Shown: piece by piece, positions 12,026 to 39,925 of the stretch | Layout of the letters: the number at the start of each line of letters is the position of its first letter | How positions within the stretch are numbered: position 1 is the first letter of the stretch | Origin: an uncultured virus (IMG/VR IMGVR_UViG_3300042560_002070) | Taxonomy: Duplodnaviria > Heunggongvirae > Uroviricota > Caudoviricetes | Strand: one strand, 5' to 3' | Length of the DNA stretch: 64,000 nucleotides | Virus record (IMG/VR): IMGVR_UViG_3300042560_002070 | The notes under the pieces: generated by a model | Told to the model about the DNA's origin: nothing | Seen by the model: the letters and a program-made list of their open reading frames with translations, nothing else | Database searches by the model: none | Made by a program: the position numbers and the translations under genes

Positions 12026-12026
12026 A

Positions 12027-12380: not shown

Positions 12381-12450
12381 CATCGCCAGCCACCCCCTCC
12401 TGGCAAAATGAAAAACAAGTTAAGCGGAAGAATACTTGGAGGGTGATGCT

Positions 12451-14790
12451 ATGTCACGAATGAATATTGATCGGCAGTCGCAGTACAGGAATAGTGCTGC
12501 GCAAAGTGGTGGTGGTAATCGCCCTAGCTCTCAGGCTGGTATGGGAAATCAGAATTCCATGCAGAGCTTTCTTACCTTTAGGCCAAGCGGCAATCCGATG
12601 AGCCCGCTACAACCGCAAAGTCCCTACGACGAGTACTACACGCCTAAGAGAAGTATGACAGATGCCAGGAGCGCGATTAGCGACTTCATGTCCGGAGGCA
12701 ATCAAAGCCGCTCATCCAGTGCACAGCCATCGCCGTCTATTTATGGTTCGGGTAGGCAGCAGCAGATGCCGTTTTTGCCAGGGAGAGGTAGTAGTTCAAC
12801 TACGCAGCCACAATATGATGATTTGTTGTATAGGTTTAACCCTGACGCACCTGCGATGTCAAAGAGAGAGATGATTTATTTAGGTGGGGCTTTCAATAAG
12901 CCTTTAGGTTCTAATCAGGGAAGCAGCTTGAGAGATTTTGCGGTTCCTGTAGCTGCTGGCACTCCTGCGAGTAATCTTTCGCCTGCGCCGGACATGTCTC
13001 TTCTTCCACGCAACCTAAACTCTCTAGGTATTAGTTACGCACCAGGGGTTGGCTCACCGCAGCAGTCTCGGATGCCAGTTCCTCAAGTAGTGTCTGAGCC
13101 TTATCAGAGACCAAATCAAGCGTATCAGCCTTTTTCGTTTGGTTTTGGTAATCGCGATGACTACGTAAAAGTTCCGTACTCGCCTGAGTTGTTTGCTGAT
13201 GCTCCGGCAGGTTACAGCAGTTTTCAGGCTCCTCGGTTTGGGTCCAGTGCTGCCTATGTTAACCCAGAGACTACACAGGCTTTTGATGACTTCAATGCAG
13301 AGGCTCGTCGATTGGCGGCACAGCCACGGGAAGATCTTTATGGCATGACATCCAAGATGATCGCTGATGGTGTTGAACAAGGTCGTCAACAAGGCGTGCA
13401 GGATGCCAATGAAATTGTTGATCGCAACCTGTCTGAGAGTCAGGGGTACTATGCAACTCCATCGCAGAGACGATCCGGCTTCTTTAGTTCCGGCATGGGC
13501 GCATTACCAAGTGATGCTGCAATTATGGAGAGCCAGAATCGTCCTTTGAGTGATGGTGGACCTGCTGCTGCGGCGGCTCGTGCTGACCAAGAAGAAAGTC
13601 GTAAGAGAGCAGAGGATGCTATGGGAGGTCCAAGTCCCGATGGTTTAACTCGCTACATGCCAAATCCAGATCTCCTGGCTTTTGCCAATCAGGATCGACG
13701 CAGAGAGGATCAGCAAAAGTTTTCGGCTTTGCAGGACGCTGGCATGTTCCCGAATCCTCAGTCAGGATCCAATCCCAATATCGGGACTTTCCAGCGTGAA
13801 GATCTTAAGGCAATGACTCCCTCTGAGATTCAGTTCTATCGACACAAGATGAACATGGCGACGAATCCTGTGTATCGCGATCGAATCAATGCTAAGCGCC
13901 AGGCGAGATCGCAGGATTTAGCGAATCAAACGAAGACTCGACTAGAGATGGCTGCTAATCGTCGCCAAGCTGCTGCTGATGCTGCTGGCGCTTCTCAGCA
14001 GTTGAGGAACTTCATGTCGGGCCGAGGTGCTATTGGTGGTGGGCAGGATGGATTCAATGCTCTGATGTCGTTGGCTGCTATGCAGAATCCAAATCAAGCA
14101 TTTAATAGCTATGGTGATTCATACAGAGCACTTATGGCTCCAGGTATGCAATCGGAGATGCTAGATGCAAGTGGAAACATGCTAGAAAAGAAAGCAGATC
14201 TTGATCGCTTGCGGCAGTTTGATGATATGCGTCGTGACATCATTACATCAGGCAGGTCACAGATCGAGCAGGATAGAGCACTGGCACGTTTAAACGACTT
14301 TATTATGGCTGGAAACGGAGGTTCTGGAGTAACGTCAATAAGTTCTCCTCAATACACTTTACCAAGCTGGGTTGATACTCCACAACTTGATCCGGAAGAC
14401 AAGACCACACCTACCGTTGACATTTATCACAACTACATGAAGGGCATTACTGGGAAGCCTGAATGGCAAACACTTTCGCCGCAAGAAAGAAAGGCTATCG
14501 AAAGTAGGATTCGCAGGGATTATTTCCCTGGTATTCGAGACTCTGACATCTTGCAACACAAGCAAGACAATGCTCCGAATTTCTTTAGCAGATGGATTGG
14601 CTACCCGCTCCAGTCGCTCTTTGGTACTGATCCAGCGAGTGAGCGTAGGCGCAGGGAAGATGAAAGCGTCTACGAGTCGTACACTCCAGTTCCAATACCT
14701 CAGACGACTCCAGCTACTCAGGGCAACAAGAAGCCTAATGAAGAAAAAAAAGCTAGTCCTCCACAGCAGTTCTATTATAGGGCTAGATAG
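12451..14790 (+). CDS. Probable internal virion/ejection protein
   Basis: ~779 aa rich in Q/S/P/A/M, no Cys; start at ATG after GGAGG; precedes giant virion protein. Confidence 0.6.
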   Translation: MSRMNIDRQSQYRNSAAQSGGGNRPSSQAGMGNQNSMQSFLTFRPSGNPMSPLQPQSPYDEYYTPKRSMTDARSAISDFMSGGNQSRSSSAQPSPSIYGSGRQQQMPFLPGRGSSSTTQPQYDDLLYRFNPDAPAMSKREMIYLGGAFNKPLGSNQGSSLRDFAVPVAAGTPASNLSPAPDMSLLPRNLNSLGISYAPGVGSPQQSRMPVPQVVSEPYQRPNQAYQPFSFGFGNRDDYVKVPYSPELFADAPAGYSSFQAPRFGSSAAYVNPETTQAFDDFNAEARRLAAQPREDLYGMTSKMIADGVEQGRQQGVQDANEIVDRNLSESQGYYATPSQRRSGFFSSGMGALPSDAAIMESQNRPLSDGGPAAAAARADQEESRKRAEDAMGGPSPDGLTRYMPNPDLLAFANQDRRREDQQKFSALQDAGMFPNPQSGSNPNIGTFQREDLKAMTPSEIQFYRHKMNMATNPVYRDRINAKRQARSQDLANQTKTRLEMAANRRQAAADAAGASQQLRNFMSGRGAIGGGQDGFNALMSLAAMQNPNQAFNSYGDSYRALMAPGMQSEMLDASGNMLEKKADLDRLRQFDDMRRDIITSGRSQIEQDRALARLNDFIMAGNGGSGVTSISSPQYTLPSWVDTPQLDPEDKTTPTVDIYHNYMKGITGKPEWQTLSPQERKAIESRIRRDYFPGIRDSDILQHKQDNAPNFFSRWIGYPLQSLFGTDPASERRRREDESVYESYTPVPIPQTTPATQGNKKPNEEKKASPPQQFYYRAR

Positions 14791-15940: not shown

Positions 15941-18900
15941 GTGGATCCACTAAACGTCAAGCAAGCATTGCGGGCTCTCGTTGCTAACACACCTCGGGAG
16001 CCTGCTCCTTTTGATGAGCCAGAGCGTGACCCAATTAAGAAGCTCGGTAGAAGGATTCAGGCTGACATAGTTAAGGAAGCCCCTCCTGGCTTACTTGAAC
16101 GAGCTGGTAGTACAGCAGCCAGTGGGTTGTCTGCCGTTGGTAATTTGCTTGATGTTCCTGGCTCGATGGCTAGAGACGTACTCACTTGGCTTCCTGGTGG
16201 CCCAAAGCCAGCCAATCCATTCGATCAGCTATTATCGCCATTTAGTGAAAAGAACCGAACCACAGGTCGTGACCTAAACCGTGGCTATGGTTTGTCCGGT
16301 AAAGAAGACACCATGCTTAACTTTACTGGAGGCATGGCAACTGAAATTCTGACCGACCCTCTTACGTACTTGACGTTTGGTGCTAGTGCTCTGACTAAAG
16401 GTGGTCGAGCAGCCAAGGCTCTTGGTATCATGGATGCTGCGCCAGAGGTAGCCAGTCGTGCGTTGGGCCGAAAGGTTGGTAAGCGAGAAGCTCGCCATAT
16501 AGTCACACCAAGAATGCTGTTATCGGATCCGAAGCTAGGTAAAGCAGATTTACGTTTGGCTCTTGAGAACCGCATGCGAAAAGAGTTCGGCTTATCTGAG
16601 GCTGACATGGATCGTCAGCTAGGTGGTCTCGCAAGAATCAATTTGCCATTTTCTGATAAGCCATTCAGCTTTGGTGGTAAGCCATTTACATGGGGCGGCT
16701 TGACCGACGAATACGGAGTTATTGGTGCTGGCAAAATACGAGGTAGAGGTCGTCCTCTCCCTTCACCAGAGATCGAAGTTCCTCCACCACGAGGCGATGA
16801 AGGTGACGGCTGGGGAAGTATACCTGATGACCCTACTCCTCCACCAAAAGGTGGTGGGTCTCCTTCCAATTTAAAGCCAGTAGATAACTTACCTCCACAG
16901 GCAAAGCCTCCTATTCAGCCAGCGGCTGGTACTAAATCTCCAAAACCACTGCCTAAGGATCCAGTTACCGATGAGGCGAAGGTGGCACCTACTGTCAAGC
17001 CAAAGCCAGACTTTGACTACACGCCGAAGGAGTTGGATGCGTTACGCGATTTTGGTTATTCCGACATCGAAGATGTTTCCTATCTCAAAGATACAGCCAA
17101 GGAACATAAAACAAATCCAGTACGCATACTCGCAGTTGAGTCTACTGTTGATAATTTGGTTCAAATGGTTGACAAAGAGGGCTATCCTTTTTTAAAGGCT
17201 CTCGATTATATCGACAGGCATGTGAATGAACGATTAGACTCGCTAGGATTACCTGATGCGTCGTTACCAGAAATTGATTACGCCAAGAAGTATGCTTCGG
17301 TCATTGATCGCCCTGTAAATTTCAACGACATCGTGCAATACGGCAAGCAGCAAGTCGCTGACACTGCAAAGGGTAAGCAGCAGCAAGAGGCTGAGAGAAT
17401 CTTTAAGAAGTTCGGTAGCATTGATCTGGATGAATCCGCCTACTATCGAGCTGTTTTGGGCGAGGTTCCTAAGGCAAAGAAACAAAAGAGTCTTATTAAT
17501 GAAACCGGTGTTGAGGGAAAGGCTCCTTCTGCTGTAGATGCTAGCCCAGAAATACCTCCAGTAAAGCTAAATGAGCCGTTCGTTCACAATACGCGAGTGA
17601 TGGTTATTACTGAGGTAAACGGTGTAAAAGTTCCGTTCTATCTCAGCACTGGAGAGGGAGGAAAGAAATCAGTACCTACTGGTAAATGGTATCCTTTCTT
17701 TGGTGTTGGCAATGATAAGTGGATCAACAAAGGTTCAGAGAAAGCAATTAATGATTTCTATGGCAGTCCCTCCCTGAGAGCTAAGGCTGAAGAGCTAAAT
17801 AACTCATTAGGACCAAATTATAAAATTAGTCAGCCAGATTTGCCGATTGCATTTGATAACACAAAAAAGCTTTCTGGTGATCGACGCTACGTTGCCGCTG
17901 ATGTTAATGAGGGATTTAGCCCAGTTAGCTGGCAGTACGCCGCAGACAATTATAAGTTACATGATGATTACATTAGCAATGCGGTAGCGAGGATTGAAGG
18001 ACGAAGTGCTGATCCTAAGAGTGCCGCGCAATCTGGTGCTGATGTTGCACCGAAAGCTAGAACCTACAAGCGAACCAGTGATGGTGACTATCTATCTGAT
18101 GACGGCAGGGTTTCTGTTGTCAAAACAGGCAGTAACAAATATGAGCTATCGATCGACGGCGTTGCGATAGAGGATTACCCAACTCTGGCAATCGCCAAGA
18201 GGCAAGCTGAGATCCAAATCAATAAACCTAAAAGCAAAACACTCTTTGATGAAGAACCAAAGCAGACTGGTTATCAAGCGACTATCCGTAATAAAGCTAA
18301 GAGACCAGAGCACGGCGACGATAGCGGAATAAAAGAAAAATCTGCAAGGACAATCTATGTAGATGAACGAGGTAGTGGTCTTTCTGCTGCTAATATGACT
18401 GATGTCGAGGATGCACAGATAATTTTTCATCCTGACAATACAGTTTCACTTGCTTGGCGAAACCCAAAAACAGGAAAGCTCAGCGCTTCAAAAAGCACAG
18501 TTAAAGTTCCATACTTCACGGAGCCAGCAGTAGGTTTGCAACCTCTGGAGGTTTGGAATAAGTCAGATTCCAAGCCAGATATTCCGGTCGAAAGTGTCGA
18601 ATCCTACAAAGAAATGCACCTCGGAAACAAAATTACTGAGATTACCAAAGATACACCTGCTAGGTTTAAGACAGCCCGAGGAAGTGAGTACACGATTCTT
18701 GATACTGATTCTGCAAGTGACCTTAAGCTCACAAATAAAAAAGCTAAAGACAAAGATAAATCGTTACCAAGTCACGAGGCTCTTTTTAGAGAAGACCCTG
18801 AACTGTATCAGAGATGGAAGGATGGAGAGGTAGAAGAGTTAAGTCGCTACACCAACAACCCAGAGCACGATGGTATTTACTTCGACTGGGTTGATGCTGG

Positions 18901-21900
18901 ACTAGGATATCCTTGGCCTAGACTTGTTCGAGGTAATGAGAGCGTATGGGAGAAAAATCGATTTTACGTTCAAAACGCCGCATCAGATCTGAAGCTAGAA
19001 GATTACGTTAAAGGGCCTGCTAAGCCATTGCCTCGGTCGCCTAAGTCGAAAACTGAAAAGCCAGTAGTCGTTAGCGAAAAGGCGAAAGATCTAATTGATG
19101 CAGCATCGGATAAAGCAGATGAGACAGTTGTCCCTGCTGTAGATAAAGCCAAAATTGCTCGAATCGACGGCTGGGTAAGGTTCTTGGGGAATGCGACAGA
19201 ACCTAAGACGCAGCGACCTAAGTACTCGCCTAAAGAGATCGAGATCGCAAGGCAGGTTGCGTACGGCGACATAGAAAAGGCACTCATCGAGGAGCGACAA
19301 CTAAAGGCTCGAAACGCTGCGCCGAGAATTGGCGTGATGAAGTTTGTTCAGTCAGCCGTAGCGAATAAGATACTGCCTGAAGGAGCGGTACAGGAAGCTA
19401 GTCAATTCGCAAGAAATTTGATAGTCAAAGAGCAGCTATCAAAAATAAATCCCGAATCCATTAAGACTGCTGCACAAGCAGAGATGCTGGCGACAAGAGA
19501 TATATTTACAGAGCTTAGTCAAGAAGATAAGGCCCTCTTCACTGGCTCAAAAGATTTTGGCAAACAGGTCGGTGAGGCATACAGAGACATCCTGGCTAAG
19601 GGCCAGGTGTCAAAGCAAGCTAAGCCACCTAGTACTCTGGAATCCGCTGTTGCGCAATCCATCGATGACAGTCCCGCATCTGGTTCCACTACAACCCAGA
19701 TTAACCTTAATACGCTAGAAGGTTTGCCCGATGACGTAAAACCAATCATCGGAGAAATGACAAGCAAGATTGGTAAGCGCTTGTTTGATGACGTAAAGGT
19801 AGAAATGGGAGGCATGGGAAGGAGTGCGGATGTAGCGGGAAGCTATGACTTGAAAAATGTATCCATTCGGATCTATGATGCAGCAGTCAAAGCGGGTGAA
19901 ATCGATAAGACACTAATACATGAGCTTTGGCATCACTTATCGACATACCTTCCGGAGGAAGAAGTCCGTTCGATCTATAGAGAATATGAAGACATACTTG
20001 CAAATTACAAAATGAATCGGTCAGGGCCAATTCCGTATGAGCTGAGTAATGTCGACGAGTACTTTGCGTTTACACTCACGGAACTTACTAAGAAGTATGT
20101 TGGTCGCGAAAAGCCAGTGACACTTATTGGCAAGACGTGGGCTAAGATAGTTGATGTGTTTGAGTACATCTGGGATGCGATTCGCCAAACACTTGGCTAC
20201 GATCAAACTAAGGCCATCATGAAGAAGTTCCTATCCGGCAAGAAAGCAGATGCCGCTAGAGTTTCTGATCAAGCAATGGCGATCCGTATGGCTAAGAAGG
20301 TTGATCCGCGCGATCCGACTGGGATTTTTAACAGGAGTCTTAATGCGAAAGTCGAAGACATAGGACTTGGCGACATCGATTTAGAAAACGGCATACTGTA
20401 CTCCATGCTGGATGAAACTGAATCGTCTGTAAAACAAACTACAACAAAAGCGTTTAAGAAATGGTTCGGTGACTGGGAGAAAGATCCAAAGAATGCGAGT
20501 AAGGTTGTTGATGTAGATGGTAAGCCGCTGGTGGTTTATCATGGAACGACTGCACTAGAAGACTTCTCTCGTTTCAGTAATCCATACGCTGAGGACATGA
20601 GTGGTAACTTCCACATGTTCTCTGATAACCCAGAATATTCTGCCAACTTTTCAGACGGCAAAAATGGCAGGATTTTTCCAGTATATCTTGATATCCGAAA
20701 CCCACTTGACCTAACCTCTCTTCCTAGCAGGAGAGGCGATGTGAGGATTAAGCTGGAGAAACTTCTTAGACAGGCTGGCTTTGAGGATCCAGAATTACTT
20801 AAGTCGATTCCGCACGAGCGTGATTTGTTTCAGTTTATAAATCATGGCCAGATGAAAAACGGAAAAACATTCCGACAGAGATTGGCAGATGAAGCAGAGA
20901 AGCTAGGCTATGATGGGATAAAATTTAGCGATGCCTTTGGAAACCTAGAGAAAGGTGACATTAACGGCAACACTTTCGTGGTATTTGATAGCTCGAAAAT
21001 CAAGTCTGCTACTGGCAACCGTGGTACGTTCGATCCAAAGTCCGGCAACATACTTGAATCAAATGCGCCACCTGCGCCTGCGTCTCTAACTTCAGAGCAG
21101 ATTGCCGAACAGCTCTCCGGGTTTCGATCCGCCAAGATCGGCAAGGGAATTGATACTGCTGCTCAAACAGTACTTGACTCCGCACTAGGTCGATCTCTTA
21201 CTGCTCTGTTTGATCAAAGCGTTCTTGGGCAGCTATCTAAGGCTGGCCAAGAAGCAGCACGATTGGCATTCACTGGATACAGAAACGCCATCTATCGAGA
21301 GCGTATGTATATGTCCAAGTTCCTAAGGACTTGGTACGAGACTCCAAGTATTCGCGAAGATGAAATCATCCGATCTGAGCTTGCTCCTATCGATGAGTAC
21401 ATTGCACGAGCAAACGGAAACAAAAAGGAAGCTGCTATCGCACAGCTCGTTGATGCAAGAAAGATTCAAAACCAACGAGTCAATGACATTAGAAGGCTTC
21501 TTGAGGTGGGCATTCGGGATAGTGAAGGTCGCATCATACGTGAAGCAATACCTGTCTCACCGGAGCAGCTTCCCTCGTGGGTGCAGCCTCAGCAAAGGCA
21601 GCAGATTGCGGACATGATAACGTCGTTCAGATATAAAACTCTGAATATGTTGCGTGATGAAAATGCAAACGGCGTACTGACTGAGGCAATTGATGGATAC
21701 TTCCCTCGTCTGCTGTCAGAGCTTCCTGGTAGCAGCTCTATGCCGTGGAATCCAAACTACGGCAAGCTGCTTGATCCTGGTCATCCTAATCAGAAGAAGC
21801 GAACATCTTATCTGGTTGGCTATAGTGACGGGACTTCTGTCATTAACGATATTTCTGTCGACCCACAGTTCTCTGGTAAGCACACAGCCAAGAGAGTAAA

Positions 21901-24334
21901 AGAGAAACTGACTCGCAAGGAAGTTTTGCCGGAAGCAAGACTGCTGTGGCAAAAGTATGGGGAACGACTCGATCCAAGGTACGCCGAGCTTTCATTCGAT
22001 CAGTTGATGCTCGAATCTCCAGGTCTAGCGGAGAAGGTTGAAGGGCTCACAAGATCCATGATGGAGCTTGATCCTGCTCACGCGAAATTCCAGATCCCAC
22101 TTTTCTCAAACGACCTTTTTTCTGGGTTTGAGTTGCGGCTTGAACATCATCATCGATCCATAGCTCACGCCAAGGCTATCCAAAAGCTAATATCAGATCA
22201 TGCTACATCCAGAACTATGCTCGACTACGACAAGAACGGTGTCACTATCAGCAAGGTTCTTGAGAAATCTTCCTATGATGATCCAAGACCAGTCAAGTTG
22301 GTACTTGGTAACATGCCGAAGAAAACTATTCTGGAAGCTGATAAGACTTTCTGGAATACTATGGTTGCGAATCGTGCGAACCTTATCAAAAAAGCACTTC
22401 AAGAAAATAAAGACTTCGTGATTGACTTAGATGGGCAACGAGTACCTCTTAATGTGCAGCAGGGAACTGCGATATTTAAGAACATCATCACTCCAAACAA
22501 AAAGTTTAACACGACTAACTATGACCTGATGATTCAGCACAATCCAGCCGATCCATCAGATCCAAGTGCTGCACTGTTTTTTGCTGTTATCGACGATGGT
22601 ATACCACAAGAACTAAATGTCAGCATACCTAACCCTCTTAACGCTACTGAAGCACGATATCGATCGTCACTGCCTGACGATATCCTAACAGAAATGATTG
22701 TTGTCCCTGAAGATGTAGCAGAAGCTATTGGTAAGTTCGTTAAAGGGCCGAGGTCACTTGAGGAAGTTAGGCCGATGATTCGTGGCTATGACAAGCTTAC
22801 GAATATGTGGAAGATGATGCAGACGGGTATGTTGCCGTTTCTCTCCTTCCACACTCGTAACCTTGGCAGCGGTCAGGCATCTAATTTGTTTCTAGGGACA
22901 CAAATAGATCCACGGTTTTCCGAGTTTAACCTTGCCAATCCAATGACCTATATTAATCCACTGAGGTCTGTATTGGAGCCAATGCGTGATGCGCATCGCA
23001 TTGCAACCGGCCAAACCATTCCAGGTATTTCCGAGGCACCAATCTTTGCTGGCAAGAATCTTACCGACGAACAGGCTACCGAAGAGCTACGTAAGATCAT
23101 CTACGCTAATGCTATCGTAGGTGAGAAGCAAGGTATCTCTGCTGAGCAGTTGATGGATACGATTGGGACTGCTGCTACTCAGTATCCAGGTGTTGACGGT
23201 TCAAGAAGTGTCAATCCTCTGCGTGGGCAATTCTCGCCGCCGGTGCCTGAATCGACCTTCGCGCAGAGATGGTTCATGCCTTGGATGAGTAAAGGCGTTT
23301 TGGCTGACAAGGATATATTCCGACCAGGCCAGCTAGGTCGCGATCTGGGTCAGTACACCGAGTCGCTCAATAGGCTCTCGCCTTTCATTTCTATGATCCG
23401 GCGAGGCTACGATCCTCAAGCAGCGGCAGCATTAGTAAACAAGGCTCAAGTGGACTATACTATGCTGTCCAACTTCGAACGCGAGTACATGCGCCGAATG
23501 TTCCCATTTTATAGTTACACCCGAGGCGTTACGCCGTTTGTGTACGGACAGCTTATGGAGCGACCTGCTGGTGCGATGGGTCGTCAGATCATTGCGACCA
23601 CCAGAGCAGGTCAAACTGACGAGCAAGGGGTCACTCCGGACTACATCCGAGAGACAGCCAGCATTCCGCTTGGTGTGTCAGAGGATGGAACTAGGAGCTA
23701 CATCACTGGTTTCGGTATGCCGTACGAGGATCCTCTACAGTTTGCACAGATCGCACGAGGTAATGTGTCGGGCCTGCTCAGAGAGCTTGGCTCACGACTC
23801 AATCCAGTACCTAAGTCAGTCATCGAAACAGCAACAGGCCGATCACTTTATCAAGCAGGGCCGTTTGGTGGTCGTGAAATTGAAGACCTCGATCCAACGA
23901 TAGGTCGCATTAGAGCCAACATCAGTGACCTAATGACCGGCGAGAAAACAGAGCGGGCACAGCCATTCCTAAACAACCCTTGGCTGGAGTACGCTATTGC
24001 AAACTCTGGCTTGGGTCGAACGCTCAACACCATTCGTACTGCCACCGACCCTCGCAAGTACGACACGATCCCCTGGAAGCTACTGCTAAACCTCGGTACG
24101 GGTGTGCGAGTCGCAGACGTTTCGCCGTCAGCACAAGATGCCATACTCCGCGAACGATTGGCTAGAGTGATGAAAGACTTCGGCGGTAGAATGTACACTC
24201 GCCCCTACTTCCCAGATTATGCTCAAGAAAGCTGGACACCAGAGCAAGCCGCAGACGCTGCGAAGATCGAGGGCATTATGAAACTGCTAAACCAGAGAGC
24301 CACTGATAGAAAAAGAATGGAAGCGGCGCAATAA
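15941..24334 (+). CDS. Giant polyvalent virion protein with zincin metallopeptidase, ART-like and LPD-like domains
   Basis: IHELWHH...DEYFA zincin motif; FKKWFGDW...GKPLVVYHGT...GYDGI...IKSATGNRGTF ART-PolyVal-like signature; C-terminal DYTMLSNFE...FPFYSY. Confidence 0.85.
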   Translation: MDPLNVKQALRALVANTPREPAPFDEPERDPIKKLGRRIQADIVKEAPPGLLERAGSTAASGLSAVGNLLDVPGSMARDVLTWLPGGPKPANPFDQLLSPFSEKNRTTGRDLNRGYGLSGKEDTMLNFTGGMATEILTDPLTYLTFGASALTKGGRAAKALGIMDAAPEVASRALGRKVGKREARHIVTPRMLLSDPKLGKADLRLALENRMRKEFGLSEADMDRQLGGLARINLPFSDKPFSFGGKPFTWGGLTDEYGVIGAGKIRGRGRPLPSPEIEVPPPRGDEGDGWGSIPDDPTPPPKGGGSPSNLKPVDNLPPQAKPPIQPAAGTKSPKPLPKDPVTDEAKVAPTVKPKPDFDYTPKELDALRDFGYSDIEDVSYLKDTAKEHKTNPVRILAVESTVDNLVQMVDKEGYPFLKALDYIDRHVNERLDSLGLPDASLPEIDYAKKYASVIDRPVNFNDIVQYGKQQVADTAKGKQQQEAERIFKKFGSIDLDESAYYRAVLGEVPKAKKQKSLINETGVEGKAPSAVDASPEIPPVKLNEPFVHNTRVMVITEVNGVKVPFYLSTGEGGKKSVPTGKWYPFFGVGNDKWINKGSEKAINDFYGSPSLRAKAEELNNSLGPNYKISQPDLPIAFDNTKKLSGDRRYVAADVNEGFSPVSWQYAADNYKLHDDYISNAVARIEGRSADPKSAAQSGADVAPKARTYKRTSDGDYLSDDGRVSVVKTGSNKYELSIDGVAIEDYPTLAIAKRQAEIQINKPKSKTLFDEEPKQTGYQATIRNKAKRPEHGDDSGIKEKSARTIYVDERGSGLSAANMTDVEDAQIIFHPDNTVSLAWRNPKTGKLSASKSTVKVPYFTEPAVGLQPLEVWNKSDSKPDIPVESVESYKEMHLGNKITEITKDTPARFKTARGSEYTILDTDSASDLKLTNKKAKDKDKSLPSHEALFREDPELYQRWKDGEVEELSRYTNNPEHDGIYFDWVDAGLGYPWPRLVRGNESVWEKNRFYVQNAASDLKLEDYVKGPAKPLPRSPKSKTEKPVVVSEKAKDLIDAASDKADETVVPAVDKAKIARIDGWVRFLGNATEPKTQRPKYSPKEIEIARQVAYGDIEKALIEERQLKARNAAPRIGVMKFVQSAVANKILPEGAVQEASQFARNLIVKEQLSKINPESIKTAAQAEMLATRDIFTELSQEDKALFTGSKDFGKQVGEAYRDILAKGQVSKQAKPPSTLESAVAQSIDDSPASGSTTTQINLNTLEGLPDDVKPIIGEMTSKIGKRLFDDVKVEMGGMGRSADVAGSYDLKNVSIRIYDAAVKAGEIDKTLIHELWHHLSTYLPEEEVRSIYREYEDILANYKMNRSGPIPYELSNVDEYFAFTLTELTKKYVGREKPVTLIGKTWAKIVDVFEYIWDAIRQTLGYDQTKAIMKKFLSGKKADAARVSDQAMAIRMAKKVDPRDPTGIFNRSLNAKVEDIGLGDIDLENGILYSMLDETESSVKQTTTKAFKKWFGDWEKDPKNASKVVDVDGKPLVVYHGTTALEDFSRFSNPYAEDMSGNFHMFSDNPEYSANFSDGKNGRIFPVYLDIRNPLDLTSLPSRRGDVRIKLEKLLRQAGFEDPELLKSIPHERDLFQFINHGQMKNGKTFRQRLADEAEKLGYDGIKFSDAFGNLEKGDINGNTFVVFDSSKIKSATGNRGTFDPKSGNILESNAPPAPASLTSEQIAEQLSGFRSAKIGKGIDTAAQTVLDSALGRSLTALFDQSVLGQLSKAGQEAARLAFTGYRNAIYRERMYMSKFLRTWYETPSIREDEIIRSELAPIDEYIARANGNKKEAAIAQLVDARKIQNQRVNDIRRLLEVGIRDSEGRIIREAIPVSPEQLPSWVQPQQRQQIADMITSFRYKTLNMLRDENANGVLTEAIDGYFPRLLSELPGSSSMPWNPNYGKLLDPGHPNQKKRTSYLVGYSDGTSVINDISVDPQFSGKHTAKRVKEKLTRKEVLPEARLLWQKYGERLDPRYAELSFDQLMLESPGLAEKVEGLTRSMMELDPAHAKFQIPLFSNDLFSGFELRLEHHHRSIAHAKAIQKLISDHATSRTMLDYDKNGVTISKVLEKSSYDDPRPVKLVLGNMPKKTILEADKTFWNTMVANRANLIKKALQENKDFVIDLDGQRVPLNVQQGTAIFKNIITPNKKFNTTNYDLMIQHNPADPSDPSAALFFAVIDDGIPQELNVSIPNPLNATEARYRSSLPDDILTEMIVVPEDVAEAIGKFVKGPRSLEEVRPMIRGYDKLTNMWKMMQTGMLPFLSFHTRNLGSGQASNLFLGTQIDPRFSEFNLANPMTYINPLRSVLEPMRDAHRIATGQTIPGISEAPIFAGKNLTDEQATEELRKIIYANAIVGEKQGISAEQLMDTIGTAATQYPGVDGSRSVNPLRGQFSPPVPESTFAQRWFMPWMSKGVLADKDIFRPGQLGRDLGQYTESLNRLSPFISMIRRGYDPQAAAALVNKAQVDYTMLSNFEREYMRRMFPFYSYTRGVTPFVYGQLMERPAGAMGRQIIATTRAGQTDEQGVTPDYIRETASIPLGVSEDGTRSYITGFGMPYEDPLQFAQIARGNVSGLLRELGSRLNPVPKSVIETATGRSLYQAGPFGGREIEDLDPTIGRIRANISDLMTGEKTERAQPFLNNPWLEYAIANSGLGRTLNTIRTATDPRKYDTIPWKLLLNLGTGVRVADVSPSAQDAILRERLARVMKDFGGRMYTRPYFPDYAQESWTPEQAADAAKIEGIMKLLNQRATDRKRMEAAQ

Positions 24335-28232: not shown

Positions 28233-28463
28233 TTAGGTTGTGCAGTGACTGCATAGGGTGTGGTTGTTCACTATGGATTTTTCAGATTCTTCTGATGTCA
28301 GTCGCATTTCGATAACCTCCATTTCTCTTGAAGTAATTTCCTCAGGCGATGGCATGCTTTCGCCGGTGTACCATGAATAAAAATCGTCATCGTCCTCGTA
28401 GGATAGAAACGATGGCCAAGGCAGAAACTTCCTAGTGACTGCAACAGCCCTTTTGTCACTCAC
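28233..28463 (-). CDS. Hypothetical acidic protein
   Basis: GTGA overlap with the clamp gene stop. Confidence 0.55.
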   Translation of the reverse strand: MSDKRAVAVTRKFLPWPSFLSYEDDDDFYSWYTGESMPSPEEITSREMEVIEMRLTSEESEKSIVNNHTLCSHCTT

Positions 28464-29536
28464 GATGCAAACCCCTGTATGATCTCGAAGCAGTTGCCGT
28501 CTCGCATGATGCTGAGTGCAGCGCCATCACTGGCTACCGCAACCGACTTGCACCTTGACAGAGCCTGCTGAAGATAGATTGAGTTGATCGTTACCTTGGC
28601 CTGTGCATGATTGCATGGTGTCGTTGCCCTATACTTGGCCTTGGGTGACTGATGTGTTGCTATGATCTCAGTGGAAGTAAACTGAAGTGTCACGCCCATC
28701 TGATCCTCCATAGACACAACCGCTGCTTGATTTGCAATCGTCTTTAGTTCGGCTAGGCTGGCCTCGCTGTAACGAAAGGTTGTTTTGGTCATTTCGCGAA
28801 AAGTCTTCGTCGAAGGAAAGCGACCTTCCGCTCGTCGGCATAGGAAGCTCATGTTATCCGCTTCAATGCCTACCCAACTTTCACCTATGCAGAGCCGACA
28901 GCTTATCTGCTCATCGACAATCTCTATAATAGCCTTGGCTGATTGAGCAGGCAGTAGTGCAGTGAAGGTTTCGCATTCCGATGGCACCTCGATCCAGGTT
29001 ATCCTACGACCGTCTGTTGCCGTGAATCGCAAGACACCCTCTTCCTTCGAGCCTTCGATGTATACGGCGTTAAGCGCGAACCTCGTAGACTCTTTGTCGA
29101 TACAATGTATCACCGACTCTAAGCACTGGCATAGCTGCTCAGAGTCGATTTGTGTGGTGTAGACACGGCTCCAGTCGCACGCACCTGGGAACTCATTTAG
29201 ATCGCTATGCACTTGCAGTTCGAAGCTTGCTCGGCTATCGGTGATGCCTACCACTTTGCCGTCTAGCGTTAGCTCTACGTTATCGCCCGTCATGCGAGAG
29301 ACAATATCGCGCAGGTCAGAGTAAGCCAGTAGTGCAATGCCTGGCTCCGTCGTTTCGCAAGGTGCGATCAGCGTTAGATACTGAGCTAGATCTGTACCGT
29401 GTAGGTGAATCTCCGACTCACGAAATACGATCTTGATCTTGGTTAGCACTTCCTTCGGGCTGCTGGTTGGTATGACTTGCGACATACGGCGCAATAACCT
29501 CGATAGCAGTTGCCGTGGTACAGCATTGGTCAGCAT
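28460..29536 (-). CDS. dnaN: DNA polymerase III beta sliding clamp, divergent copy
   Basis: 358 aa; GTDL, STRFALNAV, ATDGRRI, EGRFP, INSIYL motifs. Confidence 0.85.
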   Translation of the reverse strand: MLTNAVPRQLLSRLLRRMSQVIPTSSPKEVLTKIKIVFRESEIHLHGTDLAQYLTLIAPCETTEPGIALLAYSDLRDIVSRMTGDNVELTLDGKVVGITDSRASFELQVHSDLNEFPGACDWSRVYTTQIDSEQLCQCLESVIHCIDKESTRFALNAVYIEGSKEEGVLRFTATDGRRITWIEVPSECETFTALLPAQSAKAIIEIVDEQISCRLCIGESWVGIEADNMSFLCRRAEGRFPSTKTFREMTKTTFRYSEASLAELKTIANQAAVVSMEDQMGVTLQFTSTEIIATHQSPKAKYRATTPCNHAQAKVTINSIYLQQALSRCKSVAVASDGAALSIMRDGNCFEIIQGFAS

Positions 29537-33127: not shown

Positions 33128-33433
33128 TTATGGTTTCTTTGGCGATGAATCAGGATTTGTACGGTCAGGTGAATCTGTATTAACGATGTGCTGGATTAGA
33201 TTGGGGTAAAGGTTTCGGCCCTTGACTCTCTTAAGTGAGCCATCGTCTAGTTGAATCGAGAACGTGTGTTGCCCTTTCTCTGCTCCGTAGGAATGGCGAA
33301 CGACAACACCAGAAAACTCCTTATGTCCAACAACTCTTGGCTTTCCTACTTGGCGACCCCGAAAAAAGGATCCGCCCTGAAAGACTGGAAGTTGGAAGCG
33401 AACGCGATCTCCTGTTCTAATTGCATCTCCCAT
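33128..33433 (-). CDS. Small SH3-like beta-barrel protein
   Basis: GDRVRF, SYGAEKGQHTFSI, KGRNLY. Confidence 0.65.
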   Translation of the reverse strand: MGDAIRTGDRVRFQLPVFQGGSFFRGRQVGKPRVVGHKEFSGVVVRHSYGAEKGQHTFSIQLDDGSLKRVKGRNLYPNLIQHIVNTDSPDRTNPDSSPKKP

Positions 33434-33547
33434 GTAACGTCTGCCTATGAATAGAAATAATGTACGTACAATAATGCTCCCGAATATCGCATCGGGAGCC
33501 ACCGCGCTTTATCGGTTAACTAGCGAATCACACTTGGTACTGTTGTT

Positions 33548-33820
33548 TTAATAATCTAAATTCTCAAATTCATACACGACTGATTTAATGTCTGACTGTT
33601 TGTATCCAAATCGCGTCATCGCGGACTCTATAGTATGCGTTGTCCATCCCAGATCCTTGGCTTCCATTGCACACTCTCTTGCAGTGCCGTTCCAATTCCA
33701 AGATGAACATACCTCATCTTCTTTTTGTCGATCCTCAGTTTCTTGACAAATCACACACTTACCGATAGCCGAATCATGGCAGTAACATTTGTCTGATTTA
33801 ATTGTCTTTGCTTTGCTCAT
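33548..33820 (-). CDS. Hypothetical protein
   Basis: 90 aa, CYC and CVIC. Confidence 0.6.
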   Translation of the reverse strand: MSKAKTIKSDKCYCHDSAIGKCVICQETEDRQKEDEVCSSWNWNGTARECAMEAKDLGWTTHTIESAMTRFGYKQSDIKSVVYEFENLDY

Positions 33821-33855
33821 AGTGTTGACCTTTTATTTGTATTTGTCATTCGATG

Positions 33856-35346
33856 CTATTCGTACTGCTCGCCAGTCGAAGCACACAAGAAGCGACCACG
33901 CGCTTGTTCGTTAAGCTTATTCACCTCGTTAGCCATAGATACACCGAGAGGAATGATAGTCGTCGCTGTCTGCTTCAGGCTCCTACGCATGCGATAAGCC
34001 TTCTCTACGCACTGCTTGACGTTGCGAGATACCCAACTGGTATCTTCTGGATTTGTCTCTTCGAAACCATACTTGGCTTTGTGAATATCCCACACTGGAG
34101 ACAACTCTTCGCGAGTCGGTAGTGGAAAGTAAAACGTATCTACAAACCGAGATCGCAAGGCAGCGTCCAGGCCATCGATTGAATTACTGGTCGCAATGAA
34201 TAGTGCGTTGTCGTTGGACAGTGCCGAGATCAAGCGTAACGCCGCACGTAGTCGGGTCTCACTCTCACCGACATACGAACCTTTCATCGCGCCAAGATCC
34301 ATTCGGATGACGAGACGGTTGAACTCAACACCAACTGACTTGGCGATTAAGCTTTTCCCTGTACCTGGCAAACCTGTCAGTGACACGCAGTACGAATTGT
34401 GATCCTCGATGTAAGACAGCAGAGAGCCAAGTGCATCGGCGTTGATGCCGTTGGTATCTCCCGTATGAGCTAGACCACTCTTCTCGATCTCGTCAAGCCA
34501 CACGATGATCTGTGGTGGCTTAGGCCCGTGCATCAATTCGGTGAAGTATCGCTTGATACCATGCAGCCCACCCACCTTGTCGAACCCATCGCCTTGGTAA
34601 TGAACACTAAGTCCTTGAGTTTGATCGACGAGTTGCTTCTTGAGCGACCACAGCTTTGGCATGTTGTATCCATCGGCTTGGATCGCTAACGATAAAGCCT
34701 GCTCCGCTTGGAACAGTGGCAAACCAGCAACTGCGTCGATGACTGGTGTAACATCTTCCGGCAAAGCGATACCGACCGAGCGACATATCTTTGTTACCGA
34801 GTCAAGATAATGCTCACTTGTTGGCAGGTCGTCATCGAGAATAATAACATCGTTGCGTAGGCACTCTGGTATGACGAACTCGTTGTCCAGTAGGATCAAT
34901 GTGCGACCGAGAGCAGCGTAGGCGTTACGCAGATTCATGATCGCTTGCTGAGTTGCATGATTCCTCAATAGATCATTAGCATGTTGTACAATCAGCACCG
35001 TTCCAGTCGGGAACTCCATCGCTAGGTCAAGCATGTTCTGTGTGGCGACCTTGCCGAACTGCTTGATCGTGTTGTTAAGGCTATCCTTCCTGGCTCCATC
35101 TGGTAGGTGCGATACAGCTTCGGTCACAGCTTGCCACCCATTGACGGATATCTCCGATGGTGTATTGGTGTCTCTCGCATGACCGAGATCGAAACCGACT
35201 ACATCATCCCATACAAAAACAGGAAATGAATCTAGTTGTGGTGGGATGTCACGGCGAAGAGTAATAGGATCAGGACTGTTGATTGCCAGCAGTGGAGCAC
35301 TACGGCGCTTATGAAAAAGAATCTTGCTGTAAATGGTCTCAGTCAT
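33856..35346 (-). CDS. Ycf46-like AAA+ ATPase with permuted motif order
   Basis: FDKVGGL, WLDEIEK, GLPGTGKS, GSYVGESE, FIATSN, SRF; degenerate N-terminal AAA-like domain. Confidence 0.85.
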   Translation of the reverse strand: MTETIYSKILFHKRRSAPLLAINSPDPITLRRDIPPQLDSFPVFVWDDVVGFDLGHARDTNTPSEISVNGWQAVTEAVSHLPDGARKDSLNNTIKQFGKVATQNMLDLAMEFPTGTVLIVQHANDLLRNHATQQAIMNLRNAYAALGRTLILLDNEFVIPECLRNDVIILDDDLPTSEHYLDSVTKICRSVGIALPEDVTPVIDAVAGLPLFQAEQALSLAIQADGYNMPKLWSLKKQLVDQTQGLSVHYQGDGFDKVGGLHGIKRYFTELMHGPKPPQIIVWLDEIEKSGLAHTGDTNGINADALGSLLSYIEDHNSYCVSLTGLPGTGKSLIAKSVGVEFNRLVIRMDLGAMKGSYVGESETRLRAALRLISALSNDNALFIATSNSIDGLDAALRSRFVDTFYFPLPTREELSPVWDIHKAKYGFEETNPEDTSWVSRNVKQCVEKAYRMRRSLKQTATTIIPLGVSMANEVNKLNEQARGRFLCASTGEQYE

Positions 35347-35578
35347 TGTCGTTGCCCTCAAGTGTTGCCTTCTGTCCTTCAGCGAAACGCTTCGCCTCAT
35401 CCACGCCTCGTTGTGTCAGTTTGTAAAATCGTTCGCCTACGTTGTTGCCGTAGATTGGTTCGATGAATCCGTGTTCGATTAATGCTCTGGTTGTCTCGCT
35501 CCCAGCCTGTCGGCGGTGAGCAAACTTCCTTTCGGTCAGGATGCTGACTAGCTCCTGCATGGCTTGTGAATCGATCAT
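35339..35578 (-). CDS. Small winged-helix-like protein
   Basis: LIEHGFI and YKLTQRG wHTH wing pattern. Confidence 0.55.
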   Translation of the reverse strand: MIDSQAMQELVSILTERKFAHRRQAGSETTRALIEHGFIEPIYGNNVGERFYKLTQRGVDEAKRFAEGQKATLEGNDND

Positions 35579-36162: not shown

Positions 36163-36708
36163 CTACTCGGTCTCTCGCTCTCGTACCTGCTCCTTCTGGT
36201 AATACTCATCCTTAAGTATTTCACTAGTTGCCATCCCTAGTGCATGGCTGATCGGTGCCGTATGACTCTGGCATGCACTGCCAGCGCACGCCTCCACCTC
36301 GATTAATGCTTCGCCCCCTAACGGGAACGTCGCTTTGATCAAGCTACCGTCTGGATGCCGGAGCCCTACCAGTCGATTCGTTCCACTGGTTGTGTCGAAC
36401 TCCAAACAGTTTCCCTCTCGCATGCCAACGATGCGTACAGCATTAGCTGCATACGCCTGCTGGAATCGCGTGACATCATCCTTCCTGCCCCACCGTCCGT
36501 TGTAGTCGTCGTAGATCGCTCCACGCTCGTTGAATACAACAGGATAAACCCATCCCTGGAAGTGAACGAACATGCCATTATACGTGCCGTCGTACAATCG
36601 GACGCTGCCAACCGAAGAACTGTAGTTCTTAGCGTTCATCTCCTTAGCAGCAGCTTCCAACGCCTCACCGACCTTGACCTCAACCTTGACCGTCTGCGAA
36701 TGGCTCAT
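36163..36708 (-). CDS. DUF1257 (Ycf35)-like plus DUF2997-like fusion
   Basis: MSH, GWVYPVV, YDDYNGRWG, QQAYA; C-terminal GSACQSHT, HALG, EYY. Confidence 0.65.
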   Translation of the reverse strand: MSHSQTVKVEVKVGEALEAAAKEMNAKNYSSSVGSVRLYDGTYNGMFVHFQGWVYPVVFNERGAIYDDYNGRWGRKDDVTRFQQAYAANAVRIVGMREGNCLEFDTTSGTNRLVGLRHPDGSLIKATFPLGGEALIEVEACAGSACQSHTAPISHALGMATSEILKDEYYQKEQVRERETE

Positions 36709-36739
36709 AGCCACCTCCTAAAATGAAAAGACTTTGTGG

Positions 36740-36774: not shown

Positions 36775-37674
36775 TCAAAGCTGAATCATGCGATACGGTG
36801 CATCCTGCACGAACTGGCTTACGTTCTCGTGTAGAGGAGCCAGTGATTGAGCGATTGCTGTTCGTACAGATGCTGACCGAGCAATGGCTACCGAGCCTCT
36901 GGCTGACAGAATAGATCTAGCTTGATCGACGACATCCTGTATCGCTCTACTGCTACCTAATCGAACATCAGCAAACCGATCGAGGAAGTTATTGAGAGGA
37001 TCAAACATATTAGTGCGGAGCTGCTTGCCCTGAGTGAGCTGACTGGCGATACTCCCGAGGATATCTTGTAGCTCACTAGCCAGTGCTGCTGTCGTTTCCT
37101 CGATAGCCTGCTCCATCATCGACGCAAACCGACGCTTCTGCTGCTCGTATAACTCAGGGTTAAGTCGTTGAAGTCGCTCGTCAGGCCCGATCGACGGGTA
37201 CGATACCGATATAGTAAACTTGCCGACAAAGGTTCGTGGGTAATAATCCTCGCGGAATGGTCGACCTAACTTGCGACGGGCATCATCTACTAGCTCGTCA
37301 CGATGCGAGTCCAGTGTCGTCACCAGCGTTTCAAGAATCTGGCACTGCTCGGTAATGTACTGTTGAAACTTTTCCAGATTATCAATGTGCAGTAAGCGCA
37401 CCGAAGGCTCTGGGTAGCTTACAGTTTTTTCCTTGAACTCGCGTTTGACCTTACTCATGTGGCTGGTTACAGCGGAATAGGCAGGGTGCTTGGTGTTGAC
37501 AATCACCTGCATTGCCTTGATACGATCAGCACTGGCTTCTAATGTTCGGGCGATATCTGTTATGTAGCTATCTTCAAAATTCTTACTCGTGCCGAATCGT
37601 GTCATGTCCATCTGTACGGCGATGGTCTGTGCCTGCAATTGTTCTGTTGCGTTGTCGTCGAGAAGCATGTTCAT
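36775..37674 (-). CDS. DUF3150-like helical protein
   Basis: YPEPSVRLL, ARRKLG, DYYP motifs; position in AAA cluster. Confidence 0.55.
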   Translation of the reverse strand: MNMLLDDNATEQLQAQTIAVQMDMTRFGTSKNFEDSYITDIARTLEASADRIKAMQVIVNTKHPAYSAVTSHMSKVKREFKEKTVSYPEPSVRLLHIDNLEKFQQYITEQCQILETLVTTLDSHRDELVDDARRKLGRPFREDYYPRTFVGKFTISVSYPSIGPDERLQRLNPELYEQQKRRFASMMEQAIEETTAALASELQDILGSIASQLTQGKQLRTNMFDPLNNFLDRFADVRLGSSRAIQDVVDQARSILSARGSVAIARSASVRTAIAQSLAPLHENVSQFVQDAPYRMIQL

Positions 37675-37756: not shown

Positions 37757-38884
37757 TTACGCTGTGACTTCTTGTTCCTCTTGACGCTGCGGGCTGCTAG
37801 AGCCCATCGGCATGAGGATGCAAGTCATACCATTAGTTACGAATCGAACAGCATTCGTCCCTCCGTAATACATAAAGTCTACAGTGTCGACGGTCGACTG
37901 CTCAATCATTTCTCGCACCATCTCACCGTCAAGGGTGACAGTGAAATTTGCATCACCGTCTTCTCGTTCGCATTCGAGTGACACTTTAGCTTTACCTACC
38001 GAAGCAGTCGAAGCACTGATCTGTAAACTTCGACCACTTGCTTTCCATGTGGTGGCACGGTTGTCGTCAGTTGAAAATAGTGTGGCTCGCTTAAGGGTTC
38101 CCAGTAGCATAGTGCGATCGATCACACGTTTGGCTGCTGGCGATTCGGAGGGTTGTTCTAAGATTTTGTTGTAATCTGGGAATCTTCCCTCGATCAATCG
38201 GCATGCAACTTTGATATCACCGCTGACAAACAAAGCCATATTCTGGTTCGCTGCCATTTCCGTTTCCCCTAACTTACTAATCCGCTTGACCACGGTGCTG
38301 GGGATCATCCAACTTCCCTGCACATCATTCTCGAAGGGGATATGGTAGTGCATGAGACGGCGACTGTCTGTCGACACAAGCTCAAGGCTACTATCTGTAG
38401 ACTTGAACAGTACTGACTGGAGCTGATAGCGACCTGAACCTGAATCGGCGGCTACGGTCAATGCTCCAGCCCTTGATAAATAGTAGGCTGGTAGAGTAAG
38501 ATAGTCGTGACCGACCGACGGTAGGGATGGCAAGTCCGAACCAAAGTTAGGCACAACGAACTTGTCATCATGGTTCTTAACCACTAGGCCGGTGGGGTTA
38601 TCGCGATTACCTTCCACCTCGATCGTTAGTTCGTCCATGTCGCAAGCTTTGATTATTTTTTTGAGCAGTGTGGCGTTGACTACGACCTGCGATGTCAAGC
38701 GAGACTCGCAGCTTAGTACGTACTCTGCCTGTGCCTCTCCGTCGTAGCCGCTGACAGTTAGTGAATCACGATCAATGACCAGTTTGACGCACTCAAGCAC
38801 TGGCTTGGCCGATGTCTTGAGGGTGAACTGGGAAACGAAATCGACAGCCTTGGTAAAATTAAGTCGATCAATAGTACATCGCAT
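37757..38884 (-). CDS. dnaN: DNA polymerase III beta sliding clamp
   Basis: 375 aa; KPVLECV, RYQLQSV, STDSRRL, RLIEGRFPDY, C-terminal ILMPM. Confidence 0.92.
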   Translation of the reverse strand: MRCTIDRLNFTKAVDFVSQFTLKTSAKPVLECVKLVIDRDSLTVSGYDGEAQAEYVLSCESRLTSQVVVNATLLKKIIKACDMDELTIEVEGNRDNPTGLVVKNHDDKFVVPNFGSDLPSLPSVGHDYLTLPAYYLSRAGALTVAADSGSGRYQLQSVLFKSTDSSLELVSTDSRRLMHYHIPFENDVQGSWMIPSTVVKRISKLGETEMAANQNMALFVSGDIKVACRLIEGRFPDYNKILEQPSESPAAKRVIDRTMLLGTLKRATLFSTDDNRATTWKASGRSLQISASTASVGKAKVSLECEREDGDANFTVTLDGEMVREMIEQSTVDTVDFMYYGGTNAVRFVTNGMTCILMPMGSSSPQRQEEQEVTA

Positions 38885-39157: not shown

Positions 39158-39290
39158 TCTTGTACTCGATTGGTGCATCGATACCAATCATTCCCCTCGA
39201 TTTCAATCGCTTGAAAGCAATCTTTATGACAGTCCCGTCTGGAGCAATAATCTCTACGACACTGTCTTGCTTGACACCGATAGTTAGCAC
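39075..39290 (-). CDS. CsrA-like carbon storage regulator
   Basis: GTG start; MLTIGVKQDSVVEI...IGIDAP...INR matches the CsrA pattern. Confidence 0.6.
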   Translation of the reverse strand: MLTIGVKQDSVVEIIAPDGTVIKIAFKRLKSRGMIGIDAPIEYKINRTKHQPAAQADQLPQHQEHKPECSA

Positions 39291-39925
39291 TTTGAAAACT
39301 CCTTTGCTAAAGCGTCTTCGGCCTGCTGTGTTGCAAGCCGCATGGAAAACCGTTCCCCTTTCCAGCCCCATTTTTTTGCAGCGGTGGGAGCCTCGTATCC
39401 TGTGACCTTCTCCCAAATTTCACAGATCTTATTGTAACAAGAGTCGGCAAACACCTTGTTGCTGCTGAATTCAAGTATTCGGAATCGCTCGATCAGAGCT
39501 TCATCAAGCCCGTCGATCTTGTTGCTAGTTCCCATGACGATCGTGTTCCGCCTTAAGCTCGTCTCTGGGTCAAGTGCATCCTTTAGAAATCGCTGAACCT
39601 GTGGAGACAGGAACTCGCATTCCTCAAGGATCACTAAATGAAATCCACTTGGGCTACAGTAAGCAAGGTCACGTAAGAACAGCGTCTTGGCATCTTCTAT
39701 ACCTAGCAGAGTGCATGGGACATGATGCAATCCCGTGAACTCATCTTCGCAACCAAGCGATTCAGAGATAACTCTCGTTGTTATAGTCTTGCCAGTGCCG
39801 GGATCTCCTACCAGCATCCAGCAACCACGCGAAGGATTCTCAAGTAACTGCTTTAGTGATTCGATTGGTTGACCAACAATATCATCTAACGAACTTGGCT
39901 TGAACACTTTGTTTAACTTGACCAT
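39284..39925 (-). CDS. Clamp-loader-clade (DnaX/RFC/RarA-like) AAA+ ATPase, short
   Basis: KPSSLDDIVGQ, GDPGTGKT, VILEECEFL, ALIERF. Confidence 0.75.
   Translation of the reverse strand: MVKLNKVFKPSSLDDIVGQPIESLKQLLENPSRGCWMLVGDPGTGKTITTRVISESLGCEDEFTGLHHVPCTLLGIEDAKTLFLRDLAYCSPSGFHLVILEECEFLSPQVQRFLKDALDPETSLRRNTIVMGTSNKIDGLDEALIERFRILEFSSNKVFADSCYNKICEIWEKVTGYEAPTAAKKWGWKGERFSMRLATQQAEDALAKEFSKC

Follow-up and report, generated by a model that had tools for sequence, protein, structure and literature searches.

The subject of this study is a gene of an uncultured lake-water Caudoviricetes virus (IMG/VR record IMGVR_UViG_3300042560_002070), of which a stretch of 64,000 nucleotides (nt) was analysed as the window. 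On the minus strand, positions 33856..35346 encode a Ycf46-like AAA ATPase in which the Walker B motif precedes the Walker A motif. The longest open reading frame (ORF) at the locus is 33856..35400 (-) and encodes P0001, a product of 514 amino acids (aa) whose numbering is used for all residues below. The true start codon is probably that of M19 (nt 35346), because a GAGG sequence lies 9-12 nt upstream and the ATG overlaps with the stop codon of the upstream ORF. In addition, homologues begin at this residue, the ESM Atlas copy runs from residue 19, and the first 20 residues of the longer ORF are poorly modelled. An earlier reading of the letters alone (hereafter the original prediction) had given the span 33856-35346, which coincides with the gene so defined.

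The motifs of P0001 are FDKVGGL at residues 273-279 (GGL at 277-279), Walker B IIVWLDEIEK at 298-307 (nt 34480-34509, with the catalytic acids D303 and E304), Walker A GLPGTGKS at 343-350 (nt 34351-34374, fitting GxxxxGK[ST]), YVGESE at 376-381, sensor 1 LFIATSN at 400-406, and RSRF at 416-419. Along the chain, Walker B (298) thus comes first, Walker A (343) second, and sensor 1 (400) third, which is what the original prediction had read; its nucleotide positions for the two Walker blocks are also right. No further Walker B at the normal place was found when P0001 was examined downstream of Walker A: the GESE helix and the sensor-1 strand are separated by just three residues (396-398), too few to accommodate one.

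The gene can be divided into six regions, all on the minus strand. An N-terminal alpha/beta domain (residues ~20-262, 34615..35343) has a D1-like degenerate AAA-like fold without a P-loop. The FDKVGGL motif and helix alpha0 (residues 270-290, 34531..34593), recognized from the motif, the structural model and the conservation of G278, lead into the ATPase core. The moved block B (residues 297-336, 34393..34512) consists of strand beta3' with Walker B, the pore-loop-2 region, and helix alpha3'. It is followed by block A (residues 337-396, 34213..34392), which consists of beta1, Walker A, alpha1, beta2, pore loop 1 (YVG, 376-378), and the GESE helix alpha2. The stretch 34147..34206 encodes, as indicated by conservation and the model, the sensor-1 strand ALFIATSN (399-406) and, in the second region of homology, the arginine finger (R416, R418). 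Finally, the helical lid and the C-terminal helices (residues 430-500, 33901..34113) were assigned by superposing the model on the p97 D2 domain.

The exchange of the two blocks is best seen by comparison with normal-order relatives. A profile was built from those first-search relatives (P0056-P0121) that are 450-560 aa in length, and it matches P0001 in four pieces: residues 116-288 on profile positions 67-250 (E 1.9e-13), 298-336 on 328-368, 340-395 on 271-326, and 398-512 on 369-502 (E 1.6e-10). Thus, the match to the Ycf46-like family profile is not collinear, with positions 328-368 placed ahead of 271-326, and the first piece shows that the N-terminal domain is homologous to the N-domain of normal-order Ycf46-like proteins. 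As judged from these alignments, an out-of-order match in four pieces is far beyond chance expectation. The breakpoints lie at profile positions 326/327 and 368/369, exactly at strand starts, and the same breakpoints were found in 49 of 49 close relatives and in 140 of 143 further ones; the close relatives all read N-domain, 327-368, 269-326, and 368-503. The split, out-of-order matches that the original prediction had expected were therefore found, and its claim of two internal blocks exchanged in frame with all catalytic motifs intact is borne out by these matches together with the residue conservation described below.

Other searches see the same rearrangement. In a BLASTP alignment with the nearest normal-order protein, P0050 (E 1e-39), 40 residues of P0001 ahead of Walker A appear as an "insertion", and P0050 has the counterpart behind its GESE helix. 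When the profile is instead built from the swapped family, the matches to Mycobacterium phage Corndog gp96, Aeromonas phage HJ05 gp65, Rhodobacter phage RcTiptonus gp60, and the ATPase of a Ca. Manganitrophus plasmid are likewise out of order. P0001 scores 62.2 bits with the Pfam AAA family (PF00004; cut-off 21.2, E 9.2e-17), but the match is broken into two stretches, of which the best pairs residues 341-392 with positions 3-54 of 131, and the Walker B part of the profile is missing; PDB sequence matches likewise skip it. The best NCBIfam E-value is 1e-5 for P0001 versus 1e-28 for a normal-order relative, again with Walker B missed, and there is no NCBIfam or PHROG model specific to the swapped family.

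Is this order common among relatives? The first search gave 203 relatives at E <= 1e-3 among 7,999 scored candidates. Among the 120 listed, the best 48, like P0001 itself, have Walker B first, whereas the remaining 72 are of normal order. When 1.84 billion cluster representatives (50%-cluster) were searched with a profile, the best 150 matches all had E <= 4.3e-161 and were collinear with the swapped profile. Among the 143 new sequences of these 150, 140 have Walker B first, three are unresolved, and none is normal. (The library matches of 47,586, 13,510, and 4,056 sequences at E <= 1e-3, 1e-10, and 1e-30 include normal-order relatives.) Because motif patterns alone resolved 94 of the 143, profile matches were used instead. 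The homologues with the same block order that the original prediction had called for thus exist in number. In 93 swapped sequences resolved by motif pattern, Walker B lies 43-50 residues before Walker A, whereas in normal-order relatives Walker A comes first and Walker B follows ~54 residues away; the linker from alpha0 to the next strand is also shorter in the swapped proteins. Some members of the swapped family are 690-900 aa in length (P0026, P0028, P0029, P0133, and P0135).

A tree of 252 proteins was made from 454 profile-ordered columns, with each block placed in profile coordinates. This unrooted tree has a branch (support 1.0, length 0.70) beyond which all 180 swapped proteins are grouped together, with none of the 69 normal-order proteins among them; three tips are unclassed. 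Since the swapped proteins form one clade and all share identical breakpoints, these sequences suggest that the swap arose once, most likely when the two-unit segment was duplicated and the outer halves were then lost. A Walker B - Walker A - Walker B intermediate was not seen in a residue-by-residue alignment of P0050, and no systematic search for one was made.

The swapped family is mostly viral. IMG/VR has at least 360 relatives, and the best 80 loci are 79 swapped and one unresolved. In species-representative prokaryote genomes, the best 80 loci are four swapped and 76 normal; the four are all contigs of metagenome bins, and one of them, 65,917 bases long, is also the contig of a viral locus. 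A search of 50,697 phage records gave a single full-length match, gp103 of Tunturiibacter phage Tunturi_3, which is swapped and is the one member found in a cultured phage, while Corndog gp96, HJ05 gp65, and RcTiptonus gp60 have the normal order. Plasmid records gave no match covering 80% of the query. In Table 1 of PMC12870095, ORF 80 (490 aa) of Pseudomonas phage vB_PaeP_GZMU_A1002 is listed with a SpoVK/Ycf46/Vps4 match over 318-378 only, and a swapped-order member would give the same short match.

The fold of P0001 was predicted by AlphaFold2 with 38 family sequences. The model is confident (mean predicted local distance difference test score, pLDDT, 90.3; predicted template modelling score, pTM, 0.78) and has the expected regular alternation of strands (E) and helices (H) through the swapped region: E298-302, H319-333, E337-343, H349-359, E363-367, H379-395, and E399-405. 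The whole model fits the D1-D2 part of p97/Cdc48 in VIA (Z 18.8, 392 residues aligned, model 22-514 against p97 211-764), and residues 265-513 fit p97 D2 (468-764) with Z 16.9 and a root mean square deviation of 2.5 A over 197 residues. Foldseek E-values go down to 8e-12 against p97-type structures. From the whole-model fit, the N-terminal ~240 residues are modelled as a degenerate, P-loop-less AAA-like domain and the architecture as type II. The best structural matches are p97/Cdc48/VCP and Rix7/NVL, type II classical AAA proteins of solved structure. The swapped ATPase resembles p97 and Rix7 in its pore-loop position, GESE-type helix, and arginine-finger region, although identity is just 14-21% and the chain order of the active core differs; unlike p97, its first domain has no P-loop, and there is no N-terminal cofactor-binding domain. 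Atlas models of cyanobacterial clusters named Ycf46 also fit it at TM 0.74-0.75. The Atlas puts Pfam PF30482, which is newer than the Pfam release searched, over the aligned part of several Ycf46-like clusters.

In AAA+ proteins, the strands of the core are all parallel and the sheet order is 5-1-4-3-2. Since aligners that follow the chain order must skip the moved unit, the placement of the moved strand was tested by covariation. Mean-field direct coupling analysis (DCA) was applied to 262 sequences (effective number, Neff, 227) and 30,628 residue pairs, with two column shuffles as the null (maxima 1.68 and 2.22). Pair 298-395 (3.86) links the start of the moved strand to the end of the GESE helix, its direct predecessor in a normal chain, and pair 300-401 (2.83, rank 11) links the moved strand to the sensor-1 strand. 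Pairs 324-412, 330-392, and 322-381 (3.0-4.6) connect alpha3' to alpha4 or alpha2, the overall range of such pairs being 2.5-4.6, and pair 341-425 (2.32) connects beta1 to beta5. The covariation thus makes the moved strand and the sensor-1 strand neighbours, which they are in normal AAA+ proteins too.

The best explanation, which I consider very likely, is that the gene encodes a phage two-domain Ycf46-type AAA ATPase, composed of a degenerate D1-like domain and an active classical-AAA domain in which two adjacent internal segments have been exchanged. A normal core reads alpha0, then beta1-P-loop-alpha1-beta2-pore loop 1-alpha2, then beta3 (Walker B)-pore loop 2-alpha3, then beta4 (sensor 1), and the second and third of these units are the ones exchanged in P0001. 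The rewiring probably concerns the chain connectivity and not the three-dimensional arrangement, because the model is confident, it superposes on p97 D2, and the moved strand covaries with the sensor-1 strand. The fold and the active site are accordingly expected to be normal. Short linkers would suffice, since each of the three new connections stays on one edge of the sheet, keeps its handedness, and advances by only one or two strands.

Several points weigh against this explanation. The sheet order of the model was not observed directly, and only the neighbourhoods beta3'-beta4 and beta1-beta5 are supported; the DCA values for beta3'-beta2 (1.01) and beta1-beta4 (0.97) are not above the shuffles. 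The shuffles ignore phylogeny, and AlphaFold draws on the same covariation, so the model and the DCA partly share their evidence. Confidence is low in the loop that follows Walker B (block means of 81 and 62 for residues 301-320). At the first pore-loop position, 163 of 262 sequences have L, and an aromatic residue is often lacking. The normal-order sample of the tree consists only of the 69 sequences brought in by the search from P0001.

Does the moved unit stay within its own chain? In a domain-swapped ring, the unit 297-336 would insert into the neighbouring subunit and each active site would be composed of two chains. The monomer model is compatible with either arrangement, and the lower confidence of the loop after Walker B would suit an exchange. 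However, the linkers are short (seven residues from alpha0 to the moved strand and three from alpha3' to beta1), the spacing of the Walker motifs is fixed within the narrow range given above, the monomer model is compact as well as confident, and all covariation pairs can be satisfied within a single chain. Such a ring is therefore improbable. The original prediction had offered a rewired P-loop topology or domain swapping; the rewiring of the chain connectivity stands, while domain swapping between subunits finds no support here.

A changed fold, in which the moved strand lies elsewhere in the sheet or outside it and gives the active site a new geometry, is about as improbable as the domain-swapped ring, if anything slightly more so. 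It draws on the indirect nature of the sheet order and on the 52 of 249 residues in the model segment 265-513 that are not aligned to p97 D2. Nevertheless, an aligner bound to chain order must omit the moved ~40 residues, which explains most of the unaligned part, and the DCA pairs 300-401 and 298-395 are contacts of the normal arrangement. The strict retention of D303 and E304 is sensible only beside the P-loop.

The preferred reading of an active, re-threaded core was also set against decay. The protein already has one degenerate AAA-like domain, and the upstream Walker B-like block might be a relic in an inactive ATPase that serves only as a scaffold. However, in distinct swapped sequences with identity to P0001 down to 25%, E304, K349, N406, and R418 are invariant (262 of 262), while S/T350 and G278 are kept in 261 and D303 in 260. 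In pore loop 1, V377 is kept in 249 and G378 in 260 of the 262. At least three swapped relatives have inteins in the P-loop, identified by the intein/homing-endonuclease Pfam domains PF05203 and PF14528, and in three intein-bearing relatives the normal-order profile breaks at 277/278, inside the P-loop. Inteins favour conserved, essential sites. Decay is thus very improbable, being opposed both by the catalytic residues (260-262 of 262) and by the inteins.

An artefact of assembly or sequencing in the contig is next to inconceivable, as contigs from four other runs are identical across the gene without a joint and 79 of 80 viral loci from other samples share the order. Twenty lake-water runs contain at least half of the sampled words of the sequence; the four runs belong to the 13 among these that carry no mark as a possible source. 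One of their contigs (X8) spans 33700-35332 and another (X12) spans 34123-34949, both with 0 differences and no joints, and both cross all three junctions. Misassembly, which the original prediction had named as a danger at the junctions, is excluded.

How might the swapped ATPase work? ATP would be bound on the P-loop and is predicted to be hydrolysed with D303/E304 and N406, and R418 would be supplied by the neighbouring subunit in a predicted ring. Since a conserved hydrophobic-V-G loop lies ahead of the GESE helix, the sequence suggests a substrate-pulling ring in which the substrate would be pulled by this pore loop; that the substrate is a protein threaded through the pore is a guess. 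The ancestor would have been a normal-order protein that already worked with the DUF1257, DUF2997, and DUF3150 proteins.

The neighbourhood of the gene bears on this last point. The swapped ATPase sits in a minus-strand block together with a primase, two clamp-like genes, and a small clamp-loader-like ATPase. A 183-aa neighbour (36163..36714, minus strand) has a DUF1257-like N-terminal part, as judged from its membership of a neighbour-family profile. It has no Pfam DUF1257 match of its own, and its C-terminal 35 residues match DUF2997 weakly (E 7.8e-4, 19.7 bits, below the cut-off of 24.1). In its family (100-225 aa), 11 of 22 scanned members match DUF1257 at E <= 0.1, four of them above the cut-off. 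The next neighbour, P0265 (299 aa, 36775..37674, minus strand), is a divergent DUF3150-like protein. Alone, it has no Pfam or PHROG match; 20 of 48 aligned members of its family (~310 aa) match PF11348, and Atlas and BFVD structure matches to proteins named DUF3150 support the assignment. Its model is confident (pLDDT 90.9). Foldseek against the PDB gave nothing at E <= 1e-3, a wide VIA search found only generic helical bundles over 172-295 (best Z 8.8), and tblastn against phage records gave nothing. In Tunturi_3, gp96 (11639-12667) is claimed by the profile of the DUF3150-like neighbour family, yet its record says "HNH endonuclease".

Across the 80 viral loci, the DUF3150-like gene is a same-strand neighbour in 76 and the DUF1257-like gene in 74, which makes the former the most constant companion of the ATPase. 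At normal-order bacterial loci, they are found beside 8 and 22 of 76, respectively. RcTiptonus and HJ05 carry a DUF1257-like gene, and the Ca. Manganitrophus plasmid CP114562.1 is annotated with AAA, DUF1257, DUF2997, and DUF3150 genes consecutively, its AAA protein WDT82709.1 having the normal order. Since normal-order relatives keep the same gene company, the module is older than the swap, which probably left the job of the protein unchanged.

A defence function was also considered for the module. In a PADLOC scan, the ATPase resembled IetA/TRIP13 only as AAA proteins do in general, and the partner genes had no match. The identity of the ATPase with anti-phage IetA/IteA was rejected; the NCBIfam IteA score is 20.9 bits versus a cut-off of 510, and the PADLOC match (E 1.2e-6) covers just 63 residues. 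No IetS-type protease was named in family scans of the neighbouring ORFs. No informative literature was found on the function of the module. Passages of PMC4284462 speak only of a cyanobacterial DUF2997-DUF1257-fed7 cluster, and passages of PMC10954446 concern the sgiAT toxin-antitoxin pair. A single paper naming DUF3150 came up, and to judge by its listing it looked unrelated.

Other genes of the window were noted as well. The sliding-clamp-like genes at 28460-29536 (-) and 37757-38884 (-) match phrog_947 (E 1.3e-37 and 1e-51), and the latter also matches Pfam DNA_pol3_beta domains; the clamp-loader-like AAA protein (213 aa) is encoded at 39284-39925. Just downstream of the ATPase, a 124-aa protein (33128-33502, minus strand) matches DUF7699 (PF24766, E 1.3e-8) above the cut-off. 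At the end of a plus-strand block of large genes, a 2,797-aa ORF (15941-24334) has an endolysin-like stretch at 780-903 (phrog_938) and matches to two families of unknown function. A tyrosine-integrase-like gene lies at 56091-56975 (-) (phrog_1, E 3.4e-28); thus, the phage may be temperate.

The closest known systems are the normal-order Ycf46-like ATPases, named "SpoVK/Ycf46/Vps4 family AAA+-type ATPase" by JGI and exemplified by WDT82709.1 and by the RcTiptonus, HJ05, and Corndog proteins. They are homologous to the swapped family over the full length, including the N-domain, the core blocks, sensor 1, the arginine finger, and the lid, and they share with it the company of DUF1257, DUF2997, and DUF3150 genes. 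A different precedent is given by the circularly permuted GTPases of the YlqF/RsgA/YqeH type, which are P-loop NTPases that function with another motif order, G4-G5-G1-G2-G3. In these, the whole G domain is circularly permuted, whereas in the swapped ATPase an internal pair of segments is exchanged and the ends of the domain stay in place. No description of Walker B before Walker A in AAA+ proteins was found in the literature, with subscription journals and ~1.7 million PMC articles lying outside the search. The word "permuted" in passages of PMC7824862 and PMC10853773 refers to methylases. The swapped ATPase is a real, conserved, and apparently undescribed chain-order variant of a well-known fold, residing in a phage module.

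Was the swap neutral? It is conceivable, though on balance doubtful, that an altered folding order and an altered mechanical or allosteric path gave the phage lineage an advantage, which would explain the spread to hundreds of lineages. In the swapped chain, the linker that leaves the D1-like domain runs straight into the Walker B strand, pore loop 2, and alpha3, while the P-loop unit leads into the sensor-1 strand; if the swap is not neutral, the folding order and the path between the nucleotide site, the pore loops, and the neighbouring domain would be unlike those of every studied AAA+ motor. The advantage might be, for example, escape from a host factor that recognizes the normal form. In that case, there would be no earlier example of an ASCE P-loop core that is natural, active, and permuted other than circularly, and the protein could serve as a template for re-threading such motors.

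The order of Walker A, Walker B, and sensor 1 has been treated as fixed in the core of AAA+ and wider P-loop ATPases. Annotation by motifs and profiles depends on this order, and the profile score collapses on the swapped family. The finding also points to a four-gene phage module of AAA, DUF1257, DUF2997, and DUF3150 genes whose members include cultured phages. A large natural family shows that the AAA core tolerates re-threading, and it is a naturally occurring case in which the influence of connectivity on folding and force transmission can be tested.

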